Notes: a model not told the origin generated them from the letters alone. Shown: positions 12,261 through 64,000, counted from the first letter of the stretch. The stretch is DNA of 64,000 bases from Candidatus Bilamarchaeum sp. (GCA_035455205.1 DATIFM010000008.1:13146-77145); one strand, 5' to 3'. Translations and numbers: made by a program.

Positions 12261-12770
12261 TCATTGGGTGAGCCGCTTCATGCAGGAGGCGGCAAGGGAA
12301 ACCAGCGAAGAGTCGGCCATATCCTTCATGCCGGAAACCGTCTCGGCTATCCCCATCAGGACGATTTTTGAAAGGTCGCTGAATTCCGCGTCATGCGAGG
12401 CCCTGCGCAATATGTGCCCCAGCATCATCCGCGAAAGGGCAGGGTCGGCGCCGTCAACCGTGATTATGGCCATCGACACGAACATGCACGCGGCTATCTT
12501 CTCCTCCGCGGTCCTTTCCACGAAAGCCCCGAGCGCGGCCGCGGCGGAGCGGCGGTCGAGGGCGAGCGTCTGCGCGAAACCCTCTATGTCGAAATCGGTG
12601 TAGACGCTGTTCGGGTCCGAGCCGCCCTCGAAATGGGACATCGCCAGGGACACCAGGCGCTCGAGGGCGCCGGCGGGCGAGGAGCCGAGGGACTCGAGGA
12701 GAGCCTCGTGCCTGGAGCGCGCCTTCCTGCCGCGCATGTCTATTTCGAGGACCTTGCGCCCGTAAGCCAT
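12261..12770 (-). CDS. hypothetical protein (169 aa)
   Basis: ORF only; no motif recognised. Its antisense strand generates the spurious N-terminal extension of track ORF 12393..14543. Confidence 0.35.
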   Translation of the reverse strand: MAYGRKVLEIDMRGRKARSRHEALLESLGSSPAGALERLVSLAMSHFEGGSDPNSVYTDFDIEGFAQTLALDRRSAAAALGAFVERTAEEKIAACMFVSMAIITVDGADPALSRMMLGHILRRASHDAEFSDLSKIVLMGIAETVSGMKDMADSSLVSLAASCMKRLTQ

Positions 12771-12905
12771 GGATTGAAGGGGAAGCGCCGGTTTTTAGAT
12801 TCGAGCAGGAAAAAAGCGAAAATTTTCCGTGTACCGCACGCGGATTGCGGGAAAAATTGCAAAATTTCCAAACTCTTAAAAATCTTAAACGCGTGTGTGG
12901 TGCTC

Positions 12906-14543
12906 ATGAGAAACTTGATTATTTTGCTGGTTGCTTCGGTGATACTGATAAGCGGGTGCACGCAGGAGTGCCCCCAGGATGCCAAGCCGGTCTGCGGCTC
13001 TAACGGCGTCACTTACAAGAACGCCTGCCTCGCCCAGAAGGCCAACGCCACTGTCGTGAGCCAGGGCGCGTGCCCGGCAACGGCAGCGTGCACGGACTCC
13101 GACGGCGGAAAGGACATATTCACCGCAGGAAGCGTCACCGAGGGGGGTGCAGCGTCCGACGACATGTGCGCCAGCCCCGACAGCGTGCTCGAGAGGTTCT
13201 GCAAGGACTCCTCCGCGCTGTCTGAGAACCTGCCCTGCCCGTCAGGCTACCAGTGCGACGGCGGCAAATGCGTCGAAGTCGCCTGCTCTGACAGCGACGG
13301 CGGGATAAAGGAGGACGTGAAGGGGAGCGTAACCGCGGGAGGCAAGACCTCCGGCGACGAATGCGCCGACTCCGGCTCGGTCAAGGAATTCTACTGCGAC
13401 GGAGGAAAGGCGAACTCCAAGGAAATAGTGTGCGCCTCGGGAATGTCCTGCGTTAACGGCGCGTGCGTCAAGACGCTGTGCACCGACTCCGACGGCGGGA
13501 AGGACCCGGCGATAAAGGGCACCGCGAAGGCCGGAAGCGTCTCGCAGACGGACTCCTGCGACGGCAACGCCCTCACGGAATACTTCTGCGACGGCGACTC
13601 GGTTAAATCCGAGAAGGCCAACTGCCCGAGCGGCTACAGCTGCACGGACGGCAAGTGCGCAAAGAGCGTGTGCACGGACTCCGACGGCGGAAAGACCGCG
13701 GACGTGAAGGGCACCGTATCTTACGGGACCGCATCCCAGACGGACAGCTGCTACAGCAACACGCAGGTGCTCGAGTATTTCTGCGCCTCGGACGACAGCT
13801 ATACATCCGAGAAGATGAGCTGCGGGACGAACAGGGAATGCTTCGACGGCAAGTGCAGGAACGTCGAGTGCGCAGTCGACCTCCAGATAGTCGACGTGAG
13901 CGACAAGAGGGTCGAGCTCAAGGCCTTCGACGACTCGGACGAGCTGAAGCTCTACGAGAACGAAGTCGTTGAGATAAACGACGGCATGTTCCTCATGCTG
14001 GACACGATAAGCGGCAACCAGACGAGCCTGAAGCTGTTCAGGACGTTCGCGAAGCTGCAGGACAATGACGACGAGTGCAGCACGGACATCAGCGCAGGGG
14101 ACACCGAGAACGACCTCTGCGGAAGGAACACGGGCGACGTCGAGATAGGCAGCGTCAATGACAGCGGCGGATACGCGTTCCTCACCCTGCAGGAATACTT
14201 CGCAACGCAGTATTACTCGCAGGAGGGGAGCATAAAGAACTGGACCGACAACGTCCAGTGCCAGGACGACGAGGAGTCGTTCGACACGTATACGGCAGAC
14301 TTCTACCCGCGCCTCGACACGGCCTCATCGGGCCTCAACCTCGACGGAAGGAAGCTGAAGCTGTTCAGCCTCGACTCCAGGATAATCGAGGTCACCGGGG
14401 ACAGTGTCACACTCGACATTGACGGCGACGACGTCGAGCTGCAGGAGAGCGACACCTTCGAGTACCGCAACGAGCGGTACAGGGTGACGTCGCTCGAATT
14501 CGACGACGGCGGCCTCACGAGGATGGAAATCGAGCTCGACTGA
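12906..14543 (+). CDS. secreted lipoprotein with N-terminal Kazal-like domain, four tandem 6-Cys repeat modules and an acidic C-terminal domain
   Basis: Signal peptide MRNLIILLVASVILISGC (lipobox); Kazal hallmark PVCGSNGVTYKNAC; repeats beginning CTDSDGGKD / CSDSDGGIK at about 65-aa spacing; C-terminal about 230 aa rich in Asp/Glu. True start is ATG 12906, not the track's 12393. Confidence 0.7.
   Translation: MRNLIILLVASVILISGCTQECPQDAKPVCGSNGVTYKNACLAQKANATVVSQGACPATAACTDSDGGKDIFTAGSVTEGGAASDDMCASPDSVLERFCKDSSALSENLPCPSGYQCDGGKCVEVACSDSDGGIKEDVKGSVTAGGKTSGDECADSGSVKEFYCDGGKANSKEIVCASGMSCVNGACVKTLCTDSDGGKDPAIKGTAKAGSVSQTDSCDGNALTEYFCDGDSVKSEKANCPSGYSCTDGKCAKSVCTDSDGGKTADVKGTVSYGTASQTDSCYSNTQVLEYFCASDDSYTSEKMSCGTNRECFDGKCRNVECAVDLQIVDVSDKRVELKAFDDSDELKLYENEVVEINDGMFLMLDTISGNQTSLKLFRTFAKLQDNDDECSTDISAGDTENDLCGRNTGDVEIGSVNDSGGYAFLTLQEYFATQYYSQEGSIKNWTDNVQCQDDEESFDTYTADFYPRLDTASSGLNLDGRKLKLFSLDSRIIEVTGDSVTLDIDGDDVELQESDTFEYRNERYRVTSLEFDDGGLTRMEIELD
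13089..13875 (+). repeat. four tandem about 195-nt coding repeats (units start near 13089, 13284, 13479, 13671)
   Basis: DNA-level recurrence of tgcacggactccgacggcgg(a/g)aagga / tgctctgacagcgacggcggg; each unit encodes C-x-DSDGG-...-C-...-(F/Y)C-...-C-(P/A)SG(Y/M)xCxxGxC. Confidence 0.7.
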
Positions 14544-55212: not shown

Positions 55213-55581
55213 TCAGAACATGGTATTGTCGTTTGCCGACTTTTCGGGAATCTTCTGTATCACGTCCCAGTGCTCTTCGGCCTTCCCGTCCTTTATCCGG
55301 AAAATGTCAACGACCGCGCTCCCGCGGTCGTCCTTGGTGTACCGGTAGAGGGAGTGGACTATCACGAAGTCGCCGTCCGAGAAGATGCGCTTCAGCTCCC
55401 ATTTCAGGTCCGGGAACATCTTGTAGAATCCCGGAATCGCCTTCACGAACCCTGCGCGCCCCGTCGGGACGTCAGGATTGTGCTGGATGTACCTTTCGCT
55501 CAGCATCGCAGCCGCGGCATTCACGTCCTTCTTGTTGAAAGCCGTATCCAAAAGCTTCTTCACGAGTTCCTTGTTTTCCAT
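55213..55581 (-). CDS. SnoaL-like / NTF2-fold protein (about 122 aa)
   Basis: Start MENKELVKKLLDTAFNKKDVNAAAAMLSERYIQHNP...GDFVIVH...EHWDVIQ typical of SnoaL-like cyclase fold; the track's longer ORF is antisense to the next gene. Confidence 0.5.
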   Translation of the reverse strand: MENKELVKKLLDTAFNKKDVNAAAAMLSERYIQHNPDVPTGRAGFVKAIPGFYKMFPDLKWELKRIFSDGDFVIVHSLYRYTKDDRGSAVVDIFRIKDGKAEEHWDVIQKIPEKSANDNTMF

Positions 55582-55650
55582 AACATCCCTCACGGGCCTT
55601 ACTGCGCGAAGATTATAAACCCATTTTCCGAAAGTATCTGCGGTGAGAGT

Positions 55651-56028
55651 ATGGATGAAAGGAGGATAGCGCAGATTTCCGACGATGCGACGAGCGGCAG
55701 GATAACGTTCAATGAGGCGCTGAGGCTGCTGCGCGAGCAGGGCGTCCAGGGCTACAGGGTGGATGTGAACACGCACTCCAAGATATTCTTCGACGCAAAG
55801 AACACGTTCCTCAAGAAGGAGGAGGCTGACACGGCGCTGAGCCCGGCCTTCGACTGGAACCGCGTAAACGACGCCCTGCGGCAGATGCGCGAAGGAAGCC
55901 TGACCTTTGACGAATTCCTCGCGCGCCTCGGCGCGGCGGGGGTGTGCGAGCTTCTCGTGGACATCATCGGCAGGAGGGTCTTCTACCTCGGCCTGTACGA
56001 GAATTACGTCGAGCCCATACCCGCCTGA
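55651..56028 (+). CDS. hypothetical protein (about 125 aa)
   Basis: Start MDERRIAQI; no firm family call. Confidence 0.3.
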   Translation: MDERRIAQISDDATSGRITFNEALRLLREQGVQGYRVDVNTHSKIFFDAKNTFLKKEEADTALSPAFDWNRVNDALRQMREGSLTFDEFLARLGAAGVCELLVDIIGRRVFYLGLYENYVEPIPA

Positions 56029-56070
56029 GCGACCATCCGCTCTTAAAATTTTGCCGGCGAAAACCGTGCA

Positions 56071-57246
56071 ATGGCAAAATGGATGAATCCGACGGTCATA
56101 GGGGCATCGCTCACGAGCTTCCTGTCGGATTTCGGCCACGAATCAGTAACCGTCATGCTCCCCTCGTTCCTCGCGAGCCTCGGCGCGCCGGCGTATGCGC
56201 TCGGGCTTATAGAAGGCGTGAGCGACGGGCTTTCCAGTTTTGCCAAGCTAATCTCAGGATACTACTCGGACAAGCTAGGACGGCGCAGGGAGATAGCGAT
56301 ACTCGGCTACCTCGCAACCGGCATATTCCCGGCGTTCGTCGCAATCGCGACGTCCTGGCCGATGATACTTTTCGCGAGGGCGCTCGCGTGGTTCGGGAGG
56401 GGCGCAAGGGGCCCGCCCAAGGACGCGATTATTTCCAGCGCCGTCGAGGAAAAGGACCTCGGCAAGGCCTTCGGGTTCCACAGGACGGCTGACACCCTCG
56501 GGGCCATCATAGGCCCGCTGATGGCTTTCATGCTGGTTTCCGTCATGAGCCTGAATAACATATTCTGGCTCGCGGTCATACCCGGGACGCTTGCGGCGTT
56601 CGTCTTCTTTGCATTTGTCAGGGAGAAGCGCCCGGTTCCGGCCAAAAGCAGGGACGGGATAGTCGTTTCCCTTGCCGGCCTCCCGGGCAGGTTCAGGAAG
56701 TTCCTGCTCTCGGTGGGGATTTTCGGGATGGCCGACTTCTCGCACACGCTTCTCATATTCTTCGCGGTGAGCGAGCTCACTCCATCGATGGGATTCACGC
56801 AGGCGACTGCGATGGGGATACTGCTCTTCGGCCTCAGGAACGTTGCATATGCCCTGATGTGCTACCCTTTCGGCGCGCTAGGGGACAGGTTCGGGAGGAA
56901 ACGGGTTCTCGCCGCAGGGTATGCAGTCGCGGTCCTGACGTTCATCGGGTTCATGGTCGCTCCCCCGGACCTTGCGGCCTACGCCGTGCTGTTCGCGCTC
57001 GCGGGTGCGTTCATAGCTGCAGAGGACACGCTCGAGAACGCGGTGGCGGGGGAACTCGTGGAAAAGGAGAGGCGCGCGCTCGGGTATGGCGCGCTCGCGA
57101 CGGTCAACGGGGCCGGGGATTTCGTATCGAGCCTTGTAGTGGGCGCCCTCTGGACGGCTGCCGGCTTCGGGGCCGGATTCGCATTTTCTGCAGTCGTGGG
57201 GGCTGCAGGGGTTGCCGCGCTCGTCATAAGCAACGGCCGTGAATAA
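56071..57246 (+). CDS. MFS transporter
   Basis: 12-TM profile; MFS motif A-like GYYSDKLGRRREIAILG and second-half repeat GALGDRFGRKRVL. Confidence 0.85.
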   Translation: MAKWMNPTVIGASLTSFLSDFGHESVTVMLPSFLASLGAPAYALGLIEGVSDGLSSFAKLISGYYSDKLGRRREIAILGYLATGIFPAFVAIATSWPMILFARALAWFGRGARGPPKDAIISSAVEEKDLGKAFGFHRTADTLGAIIGPLMAFMLVSVMSLNNIFWLAVIPGTLAAFVFFAFVREKRPVPAKSRDGIVVSLAGLPGRFRKFLLSVGIFGMADFSHTLLIFFAVSELTPSMGFTQATAMGILLFGLRNVAYALMCYPFGALGDRFGRKRVLAAGYAVAVLTFIGFMVAPPDLAAYAVLFALAGAFIAAEDTLENAVAGELVEKERRALGYGALATVNGAGDFVSSLVVGALWTAAGFGAGFAFSAVVGAAGVAALVISNGRE

Positions 57247-57441: not shown

Positions 57442-57933
57442 TTGAAGGCCATGGACAAGGAGTTCCCGAAATACGTTCTTGTTTCGGTCCTGCTTTTCTT
57501 CGCAATCTTCCTCGCGGCACAGATGCTCCTGCCGCAGACGGTCCCGGAAGGGACGGATCTCCTGAATTACAGGTACACCGAGGACACGAGGCTCCAGCTC
57601 CATATCCATCCGTGGCTGGAAATCTGGATTGACGGGAAGAACGAGAGCATACCGGCGAACATCGGGATAGACGGGGGGGGCATCCGGGTAATCCACACCC
57701 ACGACGAGACAGGTAAAATACACGTGGAGTCTCCATGGCCCCACGAATTCTACCTGAAGGACTTTTTCTACATATGGGGCAAAAGGTTCGACAGCGAATG
57801 CATCTTCGAATTCTGCACTGACGCGAACCACACGCTCGATGTTTACGTGGACGGCGCGCGGAGCGGCCTCTACGGGGACATACCCCTCGAGGACGGGCAG
57901 AAGATAAAAATAGTGTATTCCGGGAGAAAATAA
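57442..57933 (+). CDS. membrane-anchored extracytoplasmic HxH-motif protein, family member 1
   Basis: N-terminal TM VLVSVLLFFAIFLAA; conserved blocks LHIHPWLEIWIDG, IHTHDETGKIHVE, FYLKDFFYIWG; C-terminal CxxxC. Confidence 0.45.
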   Translation: MKAMDKEFPKYVLVSVLLFFAIFLAAQMLLPQTVPEGTDLLNYRYTEDTRLQLHIHPWLEIWIDGKNESIPANIGIDGGGIRVIHTHDETGKIHVESPWPHEFYLKDFFYIWGKRFDSECIFEFCTDANHTLDVYVDGARSGLYGDIPLEDGQKIKIVYSGRK

Positions 57934-57970
57934 CCCGGTGCGAGCCCTCAAGGGCGAGCAAACCGGAAAA

Positions 57971-58741
57971 CTAGACGTTGCAGACGGTGCCGGCGCAGGT
58001 CGATTCGTCCGAGGGCATGCCGCGCTCGGGGCATTTCTCGGACTGTATGCAGGCGCGGTCGCCGACCATTGAAAGCTGGTCTGCTATAGGCGCGGCCGGG
58101 TCGCCATAGGTTATAAGTATCCTGTCGAGGTCCTCGAAAACGTATTTTTCCATTGCAGGCTCGTCCTTCCACTCCCTTCCGTAGTGCTGGACGAACATGC
58201 GGAGAGCATTTTTTCCGTCATTGCAGAATGCCGCTTTCGCGTCGGTGACGAAGCAGGTCGAGTTGAACGTCATGTTGAGCGAGCCGAAGAACTCGGCCAG
58301 GGTCACGTTCCTTGCGTGGTGGTGGATGATTCCCCCGTCCATGTCGTGGAGGTGGACACGGCTGTTTACGACGTTGTCCTTCACGGACATGTACCTGGCC
58401 TGCGAGAAGTTGAAGGCAGTGCCGTTGAGGTAGACCATGAAATCCGCGTGCGTGTGGTACGGCACCGGGCCCGTGGGCTCCCGGGTGAGCGAGAGGATGA
58501 GGAATATCACGAAAACCGCGGCCACAGCGCCGGTGAGCAGCAGGAAGTTCCTCCTGAGCGGGGCCTTCAGGGGGAACATCGTGTAGAATACGTATGAGAG
58601 CGCGAGGAATATCAGCAGGGAGACCGTGAGCGCGGCCGGGTTGTCGAGGAGGATATCGAGCGGGGAGTGCTCCTCCGCAACCTCGCCGAGGTGCGCGAAA
58701 GCGGCGGAAATGAGCAATATGGAAAGGAGAAGGAGCCTCAT
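57971..58741 (-). CDS. polytopic membrane protein with C-terminal HxH-motif domain, family member 2
   Basis: Three TM segments, then YHTHADFMVYLNG, VHLHDMDGGIIHHH, LAEFFGSLN, Cys-rich C-terminus. Confidence 0.45.
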   Translation of the reverse strand: MRLLLLSILLISAAFAHLGEVAEEHSPLDILLDNPAALTVSLLIFLALSYVFYTMFPLKAPLRRNFLLLTGAVAAVFVIFLILSLTREPTGPVPYHTHADFMVYLNGTAFNFSQARYMSVKDNVVNSRVHLHDMDGGIIHHHARNVTLAEFFGSLNMTFNSTCFVTDAKAAFCNDGKNALRMFVQHYGREWKDEPAMEKYVFEDLDRILITYGDPAAPIADQLSMVGDRACIQSEKCPERGMPSDESTCAGTVCNV

Positions 58742-58751
58742 TGGAATCCCG

Positions 58752-59021
58752 TCAGGAAAGGTCGCGGTGAGTCTCGTACATGAACGCTGCCGGCTCGTGC
58801 TCCTTTGCGAGGCGCTGGATCACGAAGCCGAAAATCTCGGTAGAGTTGACCTCCTTGCGCCCCTTGAGGAATTTCTTCAAATCCGCGACTATCTTTGCGG
58901 CGATGTTCTCGCACAGCTTCTCGCCCACGCTGCAGTCCATGCAGGCGGCATAAACCGAGCCGTAAACCTTCTTTTCATCGAAAGTCTCCTTCTTTCCCCT
59001 TCGCTTCACCACCAGTGACAT
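58752..59021 (-). CDS. stand-alone ATP-cone domain protein (89 aa)
   Basis: VVKRRGKKETFDEKKVYGSVYAACMD matches the ATP-cone N-terminal signature (VIKRDG..E.FD..KI). Confidence 0.5.
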   Translation of the reverse strand: MSLVVKRRGKKETFDEKKVYGSVYAACMDCSVGEKLCENIAAKIVADLKKFLKGRKEVNSTEIFGFVIQRLAKEHEPAAFMYETHRDLS

Positions 59022-59025
59022 TCCA

Positions 59026-59736
59026 TCAACCCAGATTTATCGTTCCGTTCGCTATGAGCATGAGGAGCCAGCCGAGCAGCACGAGCAGGATGCCTATCGC
59101 GAGGCGCATGTTCGCGCGGTTCGCCTGCTTCCACATCTGCATGTCGCTCACCTTGACCCCGATGAGGGTCGCCCCGAGAATCGCAAGCAGGGGCGCCACG
59201 AATATGACGTTGTATATCAGGAGGAGCCCGAACGCCGCGAGGTTGAAGTTCTGCGACAGCACGAGCGTGATAGCCAGGTATGGACCTCCGGTGCAGGGAA
59301 GCTCGACCCCGGCAACGAACGCTCCGAGGATTATCATGCTGAGTGGGTTGATGTTCTGCATCATCCGCTTGATGTCCTTCGAGCGCTCGGCAGGTATCGA
59401 GAGCGAAATGCCTTCGCCATACCAGAAGAAGTCCTTTATCTCGACGAGCGCGCCGAGGACCACGATGACTCCCACAGCAACCGAGATGTACTGCGCGGTC
59501 CAGAGAGGAATGACCGAAAGGAACAGTATGAGGCCGAGGCCTGCCAGGAGGTAGGTGACGTACACCGCCGCGACATAAATGCCCCCGTAGAACAAAAGCC
59601 TCTTGCGCAGCTCGCTGTTCGAAGCCATGAGGGCCACGAGAAGTATCATGACGCCTATCGCGCAGGGGTTGATGGAGTCTATCGCCGCGGTAACGAGGAC
59701 CGTGCCGAGCTGGGGGAGAGATGCATCGACCGCCAT
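59026..59736 (-). CDS. ccdA: CcdA/DsbD-family transmembrane thiol-disulfide electron transporter
   Basis: Two conserved Cys in TM helices (DSINPCA and ELPCTGGP), about 6 TM. Confidence 0.7.
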   Translation of the reverse strand: MAVDASLPQLGTVLVTAAIDSINPCAIGVMILLVALMASNSELRKRLLFYGGIYVAAVYVTYLLAGLGLILFLSVIPLWTAQYISVAVGVIVVLGALVEIKDFFWYGEGISLSIPAERSKDIKRMMQNINPLSMIILGAFVAGVELPCTGGPYLAITLVLSQNFNLAAFGLLLIYNVIFVAPLLAILGATLIGVKVSDMQMWKQANRANMRLAIGILLVLLGWLLMLIANGTINLG

Positions 59737-60488
59737 CAGGGTGGGCCTCCGATGTCCGCGTTTATGAGCGCGGCGGGCTTCTCGGTGAAGACCAGCTTGA
59801 TTCGGTCGATTTTCACCGGGCCGTTGTCTACGGTGTAGGGGGATATGACATAGCCCGGGCCGTCATCCACGGGCTCGCCGTTCACGAACGTGAGCCACCG
59901 GGCGCTCCTGCCGTTGCACAGGTCGCCGTCGCTCCAGGTCATCACGCCGTCGTTCGTGGGAAGCGTGAGGCTGTTGTTGTCGAAGTTGCCTCCGGCCTGC
60001 ACGAAGAAATTCCTCAGGCTGGCTTCCTCCTTCTTGAGAAGGACCCCCTCGACGTGGATGCGGTTGTCGTTGTGCTCGTGGACTACGGGGGTCCCGATGC
60101 GGTTCTCGATTCCCGTCGGGTCGATGAGCTCGTATTCCCGGTCGCAGGCCCAGACTTCGTAATCCGCATGCCAGTGGACGGGCCCCTTGGTCTCGGATAC
60201 GAGGTTCAGGTAGAGCGTGGAGCCTGCAAGGTATGCGGTGGCCGCGATTATTGGCGCCGAAATGAACAGATAAACGGTCTTCTTCGCCTGCTCGGAAGTG
60301 CTCTTGACGAAAATCGCGTAGAATATCGCGAGCCCTGAGACGAGCGAGGCGGCATAAACGGCGAAAAGCGGGTTCGGCAGGCCCAGGTAGCCCCACGGGT
60401 CGGCGTGGATGTTTTCAATCGAGCCGCCTTCCGCGCAGAACGAGAGGGCACTGAACGCAATCATGAGGAGTGCCGCACGGAATCGCAT
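59736..60488 (-). CDS. secreted/membrane HxH-motif protein, family member 3
   Basis: Signal peptide MRFRAALLMIAFSALSFCAEG; blocks VHWHADYEVWACD, VHEHNDNRIHVEG, LRNFFVQAG; stop overlaps the ccdA start. Confidence 0.45.
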   Translation of the reverse strand: MRFRAALLMIAFSALSFCAEGGSIENIHADPWGYLGLPNPLFAVYAASLVSGLAIFYAIFVKSTSEQAKKTVYLFISAPIIAATAYLAGSTLYLNLVSETKGPVHWHADYEVWACDREYELIDPTGIENRIGTPVVHEHNDNRIHVEGVLLKKEEASLRNFFVQAGGNFDNNSLTLPTNDGVMTWSDGDLCNGRSARWLTFVNGEPVDDGPGYVISPYTVDNGPVKIDRIKLVFTEKPAALINADIGGPP

Positions 60489-60538
60489 GAAAACCTAATG
60501 CTCCGAATATTTATATAATTTCTCTCGGCGTGGATTTT

Positions 60539-60946
60539 ATGGACGCATCGGGGATATTGAAGGAAGCGAGGACGGTTGCGGTCGTCGGGCTCTCGGACAA
60601 GCCCGAGAGGCCGAGCTACGATGTCGCGCTCTACCTGCAGAATCACGGCTACCGGGTAATCCCGGTCAACCCGATGATAAAGGAGTGGCGGGGGCTGAAA
60701 TCATACGCATCGCTCTCGGACATCCCCAAGTCCGAGAAAATCGACGTCGTCGACATTTTCCGCAAATCCGAGGACGTCCCTCCGATAGTCGACGAGGCCA
60801 TCAGGATAGGCGCGAGGGCGGTCTGGATGCAGCTCGGAATCGTGAACGAGGGGGCGGCGGGAAAGGCGCGGGAGGCCGGGCTCGAAGTGGTCATGGACAA
60901 ATGCATGAAAATAGAGCACGGAAGGATGCATGCGCCGGATATTTAA
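60539..60946 (+). CDS. CoA-binding domain protein (YccU-like)
   Basis: TVAVVGLSDKPERPSYDVALYLQNHGYRVIPVNP and later ARAVWMQLG typical of the small CoA-binding fold. Confidence 0.65.
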   Translation: MDASGILKEARTVAVVGLSDKPERPSYDVALYLQNHGYRVIPVNPMIKEWRGLKSYASLSDIPKSEKIDVVDIFRKSEDVPPIVDEAIRIGARAVWMQLGIVNEGAAGKAREAGLEVVMDKCMKIEHGRMHAPDI

Positions 60947-60968: not shown

Positions 60969-63281
60969 ATGGGTTTGCTTGATTTTGAGGCGGCCGGCCC
61001 CCAGCTGAAGAGAATCAAGATGAGCGAGCTCGACCCCGAGCTGCTCGACAAGGTGCTTGAACTCGCATGGGAGCACGGCGAAATTTCGATAACTTCTTCT
61101 ACGGACCTCGAATTCGTCTACCGGATTTACAAGGCCGAGAAGGCCAAGGACGAGAAGGGGCGAGAGCTGCTCAAGAAGGCCGAGGGCCTGATTGTGATGC
61201 TCGGCGCGCTCCACCACGACAGGGAGATGCAGGAGCGGAGGGAGCAGCGCACCCGCGACGAGAAGTCGAAGATGCCGCACCGCGCCCTCATGGAAGACGA
61301 AATAAACGTCGGGGCGAAGACGCGCGCGCTTTTCGGGTCCATCGGGATAGAGGACGAGAGGGAGATGCAGCTCGCTATCGGCCTACTCGGCGAGCGCAAG
61401 ATTGAGCAGCGCATCGCCCTGGCCAAGAAGTCTGCGCTCGGCGACAAGCTCCTTCGGAGCCTCTTTTCAGAGAACCCCGAGCTCATCAGGATAGCGAGGG
61501 ACGACGACTTCATCCAGGAACTGAGCGCCATAGAGAACAAGAGGGACATGATTGACCGGTGGAAGGAGACGAACAAGCTCCCGCTCCCGGTGTGGGCAGA
61601 CTACAACCAGTCGCCGAGCGTCCTCCTCGTGGAATATACGAACATGTACCGCGCCCTCGTGATAGGGATGGATGAGGGGCGCCTTGATGCCGGCCCCCGG
61701 AGCGCCGAGCAGGTTGTGAAGATGCTCAGGGAGATAGGCTTCACGATGCAGGAAAAGGACGGCGCGCTCATCATCAAGGGTCCGGACGGCAAGGCGATAA
61801 CGATACCCGAAGGCCCGTCCGAGATGCCGCACGCGATGGATGAGAGGAAGGCGTGGAACTGGCTCGTAGGAGGCGAGGAAGTGTCCCCGGGCGAGCAGGT
61901 CTCGACAGGCAAGATCCTGCGCACCGTCGAGTCGATAATCAGGAGCAAGGCTATGGCCGGGGACGAAGTCGATGTCATAGTTGTCACGGGCGACAAGAGG
62001 AAGCTGTCGCAGATAAACCAGCTCTTCGGCAGGAACTACGGCGACCACGCCCTCGATGCGTACAGGAAGATATTCGACATGGCAGTCACGGAGGCCGCGG
62101 GCAGGGGAACGCCGCACCTCATCAGGCCCTCCATGAGCGGGGACGAGACGATAGGCATAATCGTCGTCCAGAGGGGCGAGGGCGGGGAAGTGCGGGAGAA
62201 ACTAAGGCGGTGCCTGGAGGAGGCGACGTCGAGCGTGTTCAGGAAAATCAGCCAGCCGGGCACGGTGCTCGGGGGCGCGATGAAGTTGCTGCGCAACCCG
62301 AGGGATTCGGTGGAGGCGCTCATTGACATCAGCGAGCCGGTTTTCGTCAGGAATATAGAGGGTTCGGTGGTCGCGACGCGCCCGGACGGGAGCGACGCGA
62401 TGATAACGAGGCCCGACGGAATGCGCGAATTCCTCGCCGCGCAGGTAAGGACCACGGATGAGCAGGGCTCCGCGCGCCACGCACCGGCGCTGCGGAAGGC
62501 GCTCAATACGCCCACGAGCCCCCAGATAGAGAGCAGGACCGCGCTCATGGACGCGGACGAAAAGGCGAGCGGCGTCGCGTTCGAACTGAAGATGGCGGTC
62601 TCGGACCAGGCAATCCTCAATGAGATGCAGGCGCTCCTTCCGTTCACGGGCAAGGGTTTGTACGAGGTCGCCAGGAACTCGTTCGGCATCCGCGGGCTCA
62701 ACACGTTCCTCGGCCATTATGGCGCGAACGGCCTGATACAGGAGGTCGAGAACGCGGTCGGGGCATTCGGCGAGTCGGAAGGCCTGGATATCAGGCGCAC
62801 GGGGACGCTGAAATACGTAATCGAAAGCGGGACCGCGGAGCAGGCGGCCGCCCTCAAGTCGTTCGTGGACCGGAGGCTGGACGAATCCGGCATCGGCCTC
62901 AGGACCATCGTGAATCCCAAGGCCGTCCGCGACGCGACGCCTGCCGAAATCGAGGGGCAGATAGCGAACGGCCACCTCGGGCTCGAGTGGGCCAGCAATG
63001 ACTATGCGAACGCGAATGCCGCGATAAGCGCGATGGCCATCGGAAGCGACCTCGCGCTCGCCCAGATTCTCGGCCCGGGGAGCGGCCTCGATGGGGTAAC
63101 CGGCTTCATCAGGGGCCACCCCGAAGTCAGGAATTACCTCGACTTTTTCACGGCGGTCCGGAGCGAGGGGATTTCCGGTTCGGACGGGCAGGAGCTCGAG
63201 AGGCAGTTCTCGGCGTTCATACGCACGCGCGGGAACGAATTCGCCTCCCGCCTCGAATCAGTGCGCGCCCAGCCGGCCTGA
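60969..63281 (+). CDS. large hypothetical protein (770 aa), tandem paralog 1
   Basis: No recognisable catalytic motif; N-terminal about 230 aa is homologous to the next gene. Confidence 0.5.
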   Translation: MGLLDFEAAGPQLKRIKMSELDPELLDKVLELAWEHGEISITSSTDLEFVYRIYKAEKAKDEKGRELLKKAEGLIVMLGALHHDREMQERREQRTRDEKSKMPHRALMEDEINVGAKTRALFGSIGIEDEREMQLAIGLLGERKIEQRIALAKKSALGDKLLRSLFSENPELIRIARDDDFIQELSAIENKRDMIDRWKETNKLPLPVWADYNQSPSVLLVEYTNMYRALVIGMDEGRLDAGPRSAEQVVKMLREIGFTMQEKDGALIIKGPDGKAITIPEGPSEMPHAMDERKAWNWLVGGEEVSPGEQVSTGKILRTVESIIRSKAMAGDEVDVIVVTGDKRKLSQINQLFGRNYGDHALDAYRKIFDMAVTEAAGRGTPHLIRPSMSGDETIGIIVVQRGEGGEVREKLRRCLEEATSSVFRKISQPGTVLGGAMKLLRNPRDSVEALIDISEPVFVRNIEGSVVATRPDGSDAMITRPDGMREFLAAQVRTTDEQGSARHAPALRKALNTPTSPQIESRTALMDADEKASGVAFELKMAVSDQAILNEMQALLPFTGKGLYEVARNSFGIRGLNTFLGHYGANGLIQEVENAVGAFGESEGLDIRRTGTLKYVIESGTAEQAAALKSFVDRRLDESGIGLRTIVNPKAVRDATPAEIEGQIANGHLGLEWASNDYANANAAISAMAIGSDLALAQILGPGSGLDGVTGFIRGHPEVRNYLDFFTAVRSEGISGSDGQELERQFSAFIRTRGNEFASRLESVRAQPA

Positions 63282-63314: not shown

Positions 63315-64000
63315 ATGGACATCGACCCGGATATCAGCGTCTTGCGGAAGATGAAGCTTTCCAGCATCGAGCCCGCCCTGGCCAATGAGATAATCGAATT
63401 CGCACAGAGCGTCGGCTATGAGGCCACAATCACGTCCGACACCAGCCTCGGGTTCCTCGTGAAGATATACAAGGCCGAACGCGCGAAAGAGAGGCGGGGG
63501 AGGAAGGCCCTCCAGAAAGCGGAGAATCTCATCCTGAAGCTTTCCTCACTCCATTTAGAGCAGCACCAGCGGGAGAATCAGAGGCGGAAAGCCGAGCGTG
63601 CGAAGAAGATTCCCTTGCACGAGCCGGAAATAGAGATTCCTGTGTCGAAGAAGACGAAGGAGCTCTTCGAATCCATAGGAATCAAAGACGAGAAGTTCAT
63701 GATGGCGGCAGTAGGCATGCTGGGCGAGAAGGAAGCCGGGGAGAGGGTTGCGCTGGTCCATGCCACGTCGCTGGGAAAGGAACTCGCGCAGAGGGTTTTC
63801 GGGGAGTATCCTGAGGTGCTCCTCGTGATGCCGGACTCGGAGTTCATTTCCGAGCTCGAAGCGATGGAGAACAAGAAGTACATTATTGACATCAGGAAGG
63901 CTGACACGGAGAGGCCGGTCCCAATATGGGCAGACTACGAGAACGCGCCGGGAATACTCCTTGACAGCTATGCGGACATCGAGCGCCTCCTCGAGTTGCA
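63315..64000 (+). CDS. large hypothetical protein, tandem paralog 2 (partial, runs off window)
   Basis: MDIDPDISVLRKMKLSSIEPALANEIIEFAQSVGYEATITSDTSLGFLVKIYKAERAKERRGRKALQKAENLI... aligns with MSELDPELLDKVLELAWEHGEISITSSTDLEFVYRIYKAEKAKDEKGRELLKKAEGLI... of the upstream gene; shared later blocks (ELFESIGI(K/E)DE, LPxPxWADY). Not in the ORF track because there is no stop inside the window. Confidence 0.5.
   Translation, partial: MDIDPDISVLRKMKLSSIEPALANEIIEFAQSVGYEATITSDTSLGFLVKIYKAERAKERRGRKALQKAENLILKLSSLHLEQHQRENQRRKAERAKKIPLHEPEIEIPVSKKTKELFESIGIKDEKFMMAAVGMLGEKEAGERVALVHATSLGKELAQRVFGEYPEVLLVMPDSEFISELEAMENKKYIIDIRKADTERPVPIWADYENAPGILLDSYADIERLLEL

Follow-up and report, generated by a model that had tools for sequence, protein, structure and literature searches.

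The 64,000-nt stretch of Candidatus Bilamarchaeum sp. DNA analysed here (GCA_035455205.1 DATIFM010000008.1:13146-77145; hereafter the window) contains, between positions 57442 and 60488, a cluster of five genes that encode three membrane-tethered proteins with a shared domain (paralogs A, B and C), a CcdA-like membrane protein and a stand-alone ATP-cone protein. An initial annotation, made from the sequence alone, had singled out this cluster, and we found all five open reading frames (ORFs) at the positions that it gave. Public records of a metagenome-assembled genome of that name contain identical proteins (locus tags VLD37_01275, _01280 and _01295), and the group to which the organism belongs is the Micrarchaeota (DPANN). 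Coordinates below are those of the window, and residue numbers for the shared domain, which we call the five-His domain, are those of paralog A unless stated otherwise.

Paralog A (A-type) is encoded on the plus strand (57442..57933) and has 163 amino acids when read from a TTG codon at 57442, with a signal-anchor helix followed by a five-His domain of predicted beta-grasp fold (57577..57924, approximately residues 46-161) that contains H54, H56, H85, H87, D88, G91, H94, E96 and a C120/C125 pair. The identical NCBI protein (P0001, [quoted passage not shown]) begins at an ATG at 57451 and has 160 amino acids, and this ATG is likely the true start. The other four genes are on the minus strand. 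Paralog B (B-type; 57971..58741, 256 amino acids) consists of a signal peptide (AFA/HLGE), a short acidic outer peptide, two transmembrane (TM) helices, a five-His domain placed from alignments at 58097..58480 (approximately residues 88-215), and a C-terminal tail with four Cys residues (ACIQSEKCPERGMPSDESTCAGTVC, 57974..58060) that is typical of the B-type subfamily. The ATP-cone protein (58752..59021) is a cytoplasmic protein of 89 amino acids, and the CcdA-like protein (59026..59736, 236 amino acids) has six helices and two Cys residues, one in the NPC25 motif of TM1 and the other in the LPC148TGGPY motif of TM4. Paralog C (C-type; 59736..60488, 250 amino acids) has a signal peptide, a short outer peptide, two TM helices and a five-His domain (59781..60191, approximately residues 100-236) with H105, H107, H137, H139, H145 and E147.

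Because they are spaced by only -1, 4 and 10 nt, the genes for C, the CcdA-like protein, the ATP-cone protein and B look like one minus-strand operon. The overlap between the stop codon of C and the start codon of the CcdA-like gene, which had been noted in the initial annotation, amounts to one shared base (cccTGATGgcg). The gene for A is convergent to that for B, with 37 nt between them.

A large unnamed family of five-His domains

To relate the three proteins to one another, we compared them both directly and through profiles. Pairwise BLASTP matches among A, B and C were weak but non-random (E 1e-3, 2e-6 and 5e-5), whereas a profile of A homologs retrieved B (P0015) at E 1.9e-34 and C (P0016) at E 2.1e-30 from a database of 5.8 billion proteins, and a single profile joins all three at E 1e-30 to 1e-67. 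The three proteins are true paralogs that share one domain family, as had been proposed from the sequence, and the motifs quoted at that time (HxH, HxH(D/N), IH(V)E and FF) correspond to invariant or nearly invariant alignment columns.

The initial annotation had not recognised the domain as a named family, and we likewise found none in Pfam-A (2025 copy) or NCBIfam release 20. Paralog A has no Pfam-A match at E ≤ 1, B and C have only sub-threshold Pfam-A matches to unrelated families, no NCBIfam release 20 model matches the five-His domain, and the homologs carry no precomputed Pfam domain across the five-His region. None of the three proteins matches the CopC, PCuAC, SCO1/SenC, CusF or HMA families of Pfam, and the family profile found only chance matches among all PDB sequences. 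We rejected a relationship to metallo-beta-lactamases (HxHxDH), to which the sole match spans 41 residues around HIHADF (E 0.078) and from whose alpha-beta/beta-alpha sandwich the predicted beta-grasp model differs. A literature search found no paper on the five-His domain or on the combination of C-type, CcdA-like and ATP-cone genes.

The family is far larger than the three-member cluster first described. Among 1.84 billion cluster representatives (50% identity), HMMER found 4536 members at E ≤ 1e-3 and 2858 at E ≤ 1e-10, from both bacteria and archaea. When GTDB species genomes were scanned with a degenerate DNA pattern for HTHD..G.IH.E, at least 120 loci were found, and all 120 that were listed contain a true family member. 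These loci come from Actinomycetota (Amycolatopsis, Arthrobacter, Kitasatospora, Nonomuraea, Leifsonia and Curtobacterium), from other bacteria (Burkholderiales, Eremiobacterota, Chloroflexota, Patescibacteria and Melainabacteria) and from archaea (Thaumarchaeota, Thermoplasmata/Poseidoniales and Aeropyrum). Thus, the finding is more general than the initial annotation had it: a large, unnamed family of extracytoplasmic five-His domains with a predicted beta-grasp fold is real.

The residues that define the domain are nearly invariant. In an alignment of 249 diverse domains, H54, H56, H85, H87 and H94 are each conserved at 98-99%, G91 at 95% and D88 at 82%, position 96 is occupied by Glu in 68% and by His in 31%, and no Cys column reaches 60%. 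The C-terminal Cys pairs that had been listed among the shared features are therefore conserved within the DPANN subtypes and are not a feature of the family as a whole. All five His residues are kept in 442 of 461 non-identical domains and two or fewer are kept in 14, with intermediate loss in only 5 domains, some of which are alignment truncations. The domains that have lost the set are mostly the first copy in tandem-domain proteins of Burkholderiales, in which the HxH, HTHD and IHxE motifs have decayed together. This all-or-none loss argues that the His residues act as one unit, and, as alternation of Glu and His at position 96 together with all-or-none loss is typical of metal ligands, the five-His set is most likely a single metal site, judging from conservation. 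Lipoproteins of Burkholderiales (loci L018, L056, L073, L080 and L228) have two tandem domains, the first lacking the His set (YTH..., NTVD and IRM in place of the motifs) and the second intact.

To predict the fold of the domain, we modelled A with AlphaFold2 from an 85-sequence alignment (predicted local distance difference test score, pLDDT, 96.9). In the model, an N-terminal helix (residues 8-28) leads into a small beta domain containing a single helix (residues 105-112), and the His-containing pairs are located on or next to strands 53-55, 84-85 and 94-97. According to this model, the domain is approximately 115 residues long and carries the five His, the Glu/His and the Asp residues as three i,i+2 pairs (HxH, HxHD and HxE/H) on neighboring extended segments. 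Foldseek matched the model only to beta-grasp proteins in the PDB, which leads us to assign the predicted fold to the beta-grasp class. The best match is a DUF4430 protein (3u7z, "putative metal binding protein"; E 0.018, probability 0.99), and the others include the transcobalamin beta domain, ThiS, MoaD and Urm1; no PDB match below E 1e-3, and hence no solved homolog, was found. The likeness to SLBB-type beta-grasp proteins (DUF4430 3u7z and the transcobalamin beta domain) lies in the beta-grasp core (Foldseek probability 0.97-0.99), but the match is weak (E 0.02-0.1, TM-score 0.36-0.43 on the query, 8-13% identity) and is not accompanied by sequence similarity.

The N-terminal regions place the domain outside the cell, in agreement with the extracytoplasmic location first suggested, by means of a signal anchor, a lipobox, or a signal peptide plus two TM helices. 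In paralog A, a Lys-rich N-terminus and a single hydrophobic helix precede the domain, and we read this helix as a signal anchor that leaves the domain outside. In B and C the signal peptide is followed by a short acidic stretch and then, before the domain, by two hydrophobic helices around a Lys/Arg-rich loop, and this layout of helices and charges would put both the N-terminal peptide and the domain on the outside. A type IV pilin-like N-terminus was also considered and dropped, as the sequence lacks a prepilin cleavage motif. In C-type proteins the predicted mature N-terminus is [ASG]-H-[GDE] in 34 of 52 proteins, compared with 6 of 254 control windows (examples are FAHGTEE, FSHEEEEE and SAHEVAEE); B has AFA/HLGE, and an Acidovorax member of the family begins HGDD after its signal peptide. 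Such arms resemble the N-terminal His arms of known metal-binding proteins.

Three subtypes can be told apart in DPANN. A-type proteins are short and have the C120/C125 pair. B-type proteins have a His at position 96, the sixth position of the set (IIHHH), two Cys residues in the domain and four in the C-terminal tail, for which the alignment consensus is ACIQSxKCPERGxPxDESxC..C (P0049, P0062, P0034, P0039 and P0088). Across 51 C-type proteins, C115 and C191 are 100% conserved, as are each of H105, H107, H137, H139, H145 and E147. Two further architectures were seen. The B-type proteins P0022 and P0068 have an extra outer domain of approximately 110 residues before the two TM helices, which starts FA/HDESEGGELKF and has no Pfam match. 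In P0013, P0118, P0183 and P0237 a cytoplasmic C2H2-like zinc finger (e.g. CPRCGNHVKAENLPDHLRKAH) precedes the TM helix, an arrangement that suggests a transmembrane sensor or an anti-sigma-like protein.

The CcdA-like and ATP-cone proteins and their linkage to the C-type

The membrane protein of the operon carries two different names in public records, "GAP family protein" at NCBI and "cytochrome c biogenesis protein CcdA" at JGI. Its Pfam match is to PF11139 (SfLAP/GAP; 49.2 bits against a cut-off of 35). Four homologs that are approximately 60% identical to it match DsbD_TM (PF02683) over the full length of that model (E 4e-8 to 6e-6, 26.2-33.4 bits), and two of the four exceed its cut-off of 27.1 bits. 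In 38 aligned sequences P24-C25 in TM1 and P147-C148 in TM4 are invariant, and the surrounding motifs D20-S-x-N-P-C25 and E145-L-P-C148-T-G-x-P-Y are invariant except for positions 22 (nearly invariant) and 151. An AlphaFold2 model of the protein has six long helices, at a mediocre pLDDT of 71. Pro-Cys in both TM1 and TM4 and six TM helices arranged as 3+3 form a layout that the protein shares with DsbD/CcdA proteins. Tsu and Saier place both GAP and DsbD in the LysE superfamily, most other families of which move metal ions, and list thiol exchange, mercury resistance and copper resistance among the roles of DsbD (PMC4608589). As GAP and DsbD share this superfamily, the initial "CcdA/DsbD-type" call holds at the superfamily level, although the window protein itself matches PF11139 rather than PF02683. 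A role in glycolipid export, as in mycobacterial Gap/Sap, is unlikely given the archaeal host and the Cys pairs.

The 89-residue protein had been called an ATP-cone and nothing else, and this description stands: residues 4-78 match PF03477 (E 1e-11, 45.7 bits against a cut-off of 25.8). Among 70 orthologs, K6 (100%), R7 (97%), G9 (94%), E12 (96%), D15 (96%) and K18 (100%) are conserved, and these six residues together with Y20 and S22 are all at least 93% conserved; the conserved N-terminal residues are presumably nucleotide contacts. The protein shares with the ATP-cones of ribonucleotide reductase and NrdR both the Pfam match and the N-terminal VxKRxG...E..D..K motif, but it differs from them in standing alone, without a zinc ribbon or catalytic domain, and in being encoded in an envelope operon unrelated to nucleotide reduction. 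The window protein also contains the sequence ACMDC. As C27 is conserved in 83% of the orthologs but C30, the second Cys of this CxxC, in only 13%, a dithiol role is unsupported and we rejected the ATP-cone protein as a dithiol electron donor.

To assess how regularly these genes occur together, we scanned JGI metagenomes with two conserved peptides of the CcdA-like protein. At least 600 stretches were found, and 588 of the 600 listed encode a relative. Linkage was then counted for the best 80 relatives (50-67% identical), requiring at least 800 nt of upstream sequence for the upstream count. The CcdA-like gene is immediately preceded on its own strand by a C-type five-His gene in 55 of 55 loci and immediately followed by an ATP-cone gene in 63 of 68, and 44 of 49 loci have the complete triad. 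Only 1 of 51 loci has another five-His gene within 1.5 kb downstream. These counts identify the triad as a conserved module to which B and A are additions specific to the window's clade. Across the DPANN-type loci sampled, the triad is a near-invariant module, with all taxon-named loci belonging to Micrarchaeota or Woesearchaeota, and the linkage to CcdA-like and ATP-cone genes is specific to the C-type.

The order C-type, CcdA-like, ATP-cone, B-type recurs in Micrarchaeota (L001/L002, L130 and ENA ERZ27296333), and a shorter form with ATP-cone followed by B-type occurs in L003 and L129. An A-type gene adjoins these Micrarchaeota loci, with a CoA_binding_2 gene in divergent orientation. Woesearchaeota locus L131 and Micrarchaeota locus L134 keep the C-type, CcdA-like and ATP-cone genes. 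The CoA_binding_2 gene of the window (60530..60946, plus strand; PF13380, E 1.8e-44) is context rather than a demonstrated functional part. Such a gene is nevertheless divergent to the operon in the window, L001, L003, L129 and L130, which is every Micrarchaeota locus examined, and it may share a regulatory region with the operon.

Gene families next to the triad were tabulated from 150 flanking ORFs around loci L148-L227. A P2A-type (PMR1/SERCA-like) cation ATPase occurs in 17 of the 80 triad loci, in 10 of them directly upstream on the same strand and in 4 directly downstream. In 8 triad loci the ATP-cone gene is directly followed by one for a flavoprotein disulfide reductase of class I, which has lipoamide dehydrogenase and MerA as relatives at scores below every cut-off. 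VIT1 accounts for 8 and cupredoxin for 3 of the 150 ORFs. No P2A ATPase, flavoprotein or VIT1 gene lies near the operon in the window, and neither a P-type ATPase nor VIT1 was present among the large ORFs scanned there.

Wider genomic context and domain fusions

Across the 120 listed genome loci, we examined 150 immediate neighbors of five-His genes and then the next 150. Among the immediate neighbors were matches to Thioredoxin (8), Redoxin (7) and AhpC-TSA (7), which are overlapping models matching the same TlpA-like proteins, as well as PCuAC (3), VKOR (3) and thioredoxin-reductase-like flavoproteins (3); the second tier contained SCO1/SenC (4) and MauE/DoxX (3). In Eremiobacterota, genes for TlpA-like, Sco-like (CxxxCP) and MauE-like proteins accompany the five-His gene. 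We rejected the idea of one universal neighbor, since the largest neighbor clusters, such as an epimerase in Eremiobacterota, reflect clade-specific synteny. In some loci zf-HC2 and ECF sigma-factor genes adjoin the five-His gene.

A tblastn search of PLSDB returned 26 plasmid records, and we opened 15 annotated loci. The raw count of plasmid loci with metal-homeostasis genes within 4 kb of the five-His gene is 11 of these 15. In L139 and L229 (M. abscessus pGD22-1 and Streptomyces pFRL4), genes for MerR, a P-type ATPase and the five-His protein follow one another in this order and in one direction. In two Pseudarthrobacter plasmids (L230 and L231) merA and merB are followed by the five-His gene, one of them having CcdA and TlpA genes 2 kb away. 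The five-His gene of pACHL02 (Pseudarthrobacter chlorophenolicus A6) is located downstream of merB. The five-His gene is accompanied in a Curtobacterium locus (L145) by HMA, a P-type ATPase, a CsoR-type regulator, DUF305 and a multicopper oxidase, in L141 by a P-type ATPase, HMA, CDF and ArsR, in L142 by ArsR, a P-type ATPase and CopY, in L143 by CopC and CopY, and in L147 by a P-type ATPase, DUF305, MerR and a thioredoxin; of two more loci, one has DUF305 and the other TlpA and CopY. The His motifs of the plasmid genes are intact except in two frameshifted copies.

Fusions link the domain to further activities. DsbA/Thioredoxin_4 domains are fused N-terminally to B-type domains in P0049, P0062, P0065, P0076 and P0078, and the gene directly upstream of a B-type gene in L005 encodes DsbA. 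Other fusions involve redoxin, cyclophilin with Calx-beta or cadherin-like surface arrays, FG-GAP and DUF4214, and the five-His domain heads very large surface proteins. In Anoxybacillus amylolyticus pDSM15939_1, a SkfF permease encoded in a sporulation-killing-factor operon (L137:3369-5405) carries a five-His domain at its C-terminus, together with an additional TM helix; of the 678 residues of the fusion, the SkfF model reaches only to residue 459. The gene that follows skfF is annotated as a HEAT-repeat protein, and no annotated skfH-like thioredoxin is present in the 7.8 kb around this locus.

Several other features of the window were recorded. Beyond the CoA_binding_2 gene lie two large tandem genes on the plus strand (60969..63281, and 63315..64000, which runs off the end) whose products have N-termini that appear loosely alike by eye. 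The product of the first has no Pfam family beyond a weak GGDEF-like stretch (E 0.007), and a protein of 810-875 residues at the same position beside the operon in L003, L129 and L130 marks it as a conserved neighbor. A 308-residue ORF at 55213..56139 (minus strand) matches SnoaL_2 only in its last approximately 120 residues (E 9e-17); as its Arg/Ala-rich N-terminal part overlaps a long ORF on the opposite strand, translation probably begins within the ORF. L001 and L130 likewise have a SnoaL gene near the operon. The gene at 12393..14543 (plus strand) encodes a 716-residue protein with a match to a Kazal-type protease-inhibitor domain (E 2e-6), which to our knowledge is unusual for an archaeon. 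ARAGORN found no tRNA or tmRNA genes in the whole 64 kb, and the G+C content of the window falls from approximately 0.60 to 0.52-0.55 at 30-34 kb and at 46-52 kb.

Proposed metal handling at the envelope and its alternatives

From these data, we propose with no more than middling confidence that A, B and C form an envelope metal-handling module and that the operon of C is a thiol relay. The membrane-tethered proteins would display the beta-grasp domain of approximately 115 residues on the outer face, where the five His residues, the Glu/His and the Asp would make one site for a transition-metal ion. Such a module could accept, donate, buffer or sense the metal next to cation pumps and thiol:disulfide oxidoreductases. 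The CcdA-like protein would relay cytoplasmic reducing equivalents, by thiol-disulfide exchange, to the Cys pair of the C-type protein, and this pair would control the adjacent His site or its bound metal, either by keeping it competent for binding and release or by reducing the metal. On the cytoplasmic side the ATP-cone protein may couple the relay to nucleotide status; the initial annotation had suggested that it could be an allosteric nucleotide sensor. Paralogy, family size, fold class, residue conservation, all-or-none His loss, topology (from hydrophobic segments and charge) and gene linkage are what the data show, and from them we infer that metal is bound, which metal this may be, what the CcdA-like protein carries and in which direction, and what the ATP-cone protein does.

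The idea that the domain binds metal gains strong, if indirect, support from His conservation, from all-or-none loss and from the metal-resistance context on plasmids. Reasons to favor a metal site are the near-invariant His residues, the Glu/His alternation, D88 and the i,i+2 pairs, the extracytoplasmic location and N-terminal His-acidic arms, and the recurrence of the genes next to P-type ATPases and within mer and cop islands, among bacteria as well as archaea. It also appears plausible from the gene arrangement that, as the initial annotation suggested, the domain is serviced by reducing equivalents from the CcdA-like protein, although that protein could just as well be a metal carrier lined by Cys residues. 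We favor a thiol relay because the C-type Cys pair co-occurs perfectly with the CcdA-like protein and because Pro-Cys in TM1 and TM4 is the signature of such relays. Envelope copper handling depends on reductants of the TlpA, Sco and CcdA types, and the thiol:disulfide oxidoreductases found as neighbors are compatible with metal handling.

Several observations weigh against this proposal. The CcdA-like protein of the window has no match to PF02683 at E ≤ 10, and its model (pLDDT 71) found nothing in the PDB below E 0.67 with Foldseek and no CcdA or DsbD chain. Classical CcdA systems have a thioredoxin-fold partner, and no thioredoxin-fold gene was present in the operon or among the window neighbors scanned; other families dominate the flanks of the triad. 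In the C protein of the window itself the N-terminal His motif is missing (FCAEGG). Informative neighbors are absent from most chromosomal loci, with thiol-redox or copper-chaperone genes in only about 10-15%, and the 11 of 15 plasmid loci are a raw count from replicons that are rich in metal-resistance genes anyway. Finally, the contexts suggest several metals, namely Cu, Hg, Zn/Cd, and the Ca/Mn of P2A-type ATPases together with VIT1 (Mn/Ca/Fe), and metal specificity may vary between lineages of the family.

The main alternative, which we consider unlikely, is mer-like metal transport, in which the five-His domain with its N-terminal His-acidic arm captures metal and hands it to the six-helix protein, as MerP does to MerT. 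The paired Cys residues with Asp20 and Glu145 in TM1 and TM4 would then form a metal path, electrons would not be the cargo, and the ATP-cone protein would regulate flux or the flavoprotein reductase would receive the metal. This alternative has real support, as it would fit the membership of GAP and DsbD in the LysE superfamily of mostly metal-ion carriers (PMC4608589), the better score of the CcdA-like protein with PF11139 than with DsbD, the invariant D20 and E145 a few residues before each Cys, and the lack of a thioredoxin-fold partner in the operon. It would also fit the MerA/lipoamide-dehydrogenase-like flavoprotein directly downstream in 8 loci, the Pseudarthrobacter five-His genes that follow merA-merB, and the frequency of P-type ATPases and VIT1 as neighbors. 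However, Pro-Cys in TM1 and TM4 is the electron-relay signature of CcdA and DsbD, two of four close homologs pass the DsbD_TM cut-off, and Cys residues that are invariant only in the C-type fit a thiol-exchange partner better than a His-based hand-off. Likeness to the mer system (MerP-MerT-MerA) extends to an outer, here putative, metal binder, a membrane protein with paired Cys residues in its helices, a class-I flavoprotein disulfide reductase in some loci, and five-His genes inside the merA-merB operons of Pseudarthrobacter plasmids. It ends at the putative ligands, which here are His and Glu rather than a Cys pair and would be poor for Hg, at the absence of any sequence relation to MerP or MerT, and at the DPANN flavoprotein, which scores below the MerA cut-off.

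Two other explanations dispense with metal transport. It is rather improbable that the family does not handle metal at all, the His cluster being instead a catalytic or ligand site (e.g. for a corrinoid, haem or sugar) or part of a transmembrane-signalling sensor. The nearest folds are ligand-binding beta-grasp proteins (DUF4430 3u7z and the transcobalamin beta domain), yet these matches are weak (E ≥ 0.018, TM-score 0.36 normalised to the query), and Glu/His alternation at position 96 with all-or-none His loss is typical of metal ligands. The cytoplasmic C2H2-like zinc fingers of P0013, P0118, P0183 and P0237, the zf-HC2 and ECF sigma-factor neighbors in some loci and the very large surface proteins headed by the domain would suit a signalling role, but the strongest context signal is metal resistance and a sensor would probably sense metal anyway. 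Also improbable is a function in oxidative folding, in which the five-His domain partners DsbA-type oxidases, or generates disulfides in a metal-dependent manner through the Cys-rich tail of the B-type, and stands in for DsbB/VKOR in presumed quinone-less organisms. The DsbA/Thioredoxin_4 fusions to B-type domains and the DsbA gene upstream in L005 point this way, as do the redoxin and cyclophilin foldase fusions, the 3 VKOR genes among 150 immediate-neighbor ORFs and the fusion to a SkfF permease, whose pathway makes a disulfide-containing peptide. Against it, the protein with the tightest linkage in DPANN belongs to the DsbD superfamily and is of reductive type, Cys is not conserved across the family, and many members lie in metal-resistance operons. 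More speculative still, and in our judgement very improbable, is a combination in which the five-His domain is a metal-centred disulfide catalyst that replaces DsbB/VKOR in presumed quinone-less organisms of DPANN and the candidate phyla radiation (CPR), while the triad is a nucleotide-gated transmembrane thiol/metal relay; the DsbA fusions would then be explained because the five-His domain would be DsbA's partner.

Returning to metal handling coupled to a thiol relay, the closest known systems include CcdA/DsbD with thiol-oxidoreductase partners outside the cytoplasm (CcdA-ResA/TlpA/Etrx and ScsABCD). These also have a six-helix 3+3 protein with Pro-Cys in TM1 and TM4, encoded beside the presumed outer client, and a link to copper handling, which for the five-His family is seen elsewhere in its Sco, PCuAC and TlpA neighbors. 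The client in those systems is a thioredoxin fold with CxxC, whereas here it would be a beta-grasp domain with a five-His cluster and two Cys residues 76 residues apart; in addition, the membrane protein here scores best as GAP/PF11139 and the module includes an ATP-cone gene. We know of no description of an ATP-cone gene as part of a CcdA system. Like CopC, YcnI, PCuAC and Sco, five-His proteins are small tethered or secreted domains encoded near P-type ATPases, multicopper oxidases and TlpA-like reductases, and the His that signal-peptide cleavage leaves at the N-terminus of C-type proteins and of some B-type proteins is reminiscent of the His brace in CopC and YcnI. They differ from these proteins in having no hidden Markov model match to them, a predicted beta-grasp rather than a cupredoxin-like or thioredoxin fold, and five or six His residues rather than His/Met or Cys ligands.

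The five-His family comprises at least 4500 clusters that lack a curated model, spread over Actinomycetota, Burkholderiales, Chloroflexota, Eremiobacterota, Patescibacteria, Thaumarchaeota, Thermoplasmata and DPANN. On plasmids, some of them from clinical mycobacteria, its genes belong to resistance operons of the mercury, copper and P-type-ATPase kinds, and, if its members do bind metal, the family would be a missing component of envelope metal homeostasis. As the soluble five-His domains are small and predicted with very high confidence, metal-binding and redox activity are directly testable. In DPANN, whose small genomes retain little that is dispensable, the module of C-type, CcdA-like and ATP-cone genes is very strongly kept, and it connects an envelope process with the ATP-cone, a domain known only from nucleotide reduction. 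Were the domain a metal-centred disulfide catalyst, the triad would be a relay of a kind not described before.

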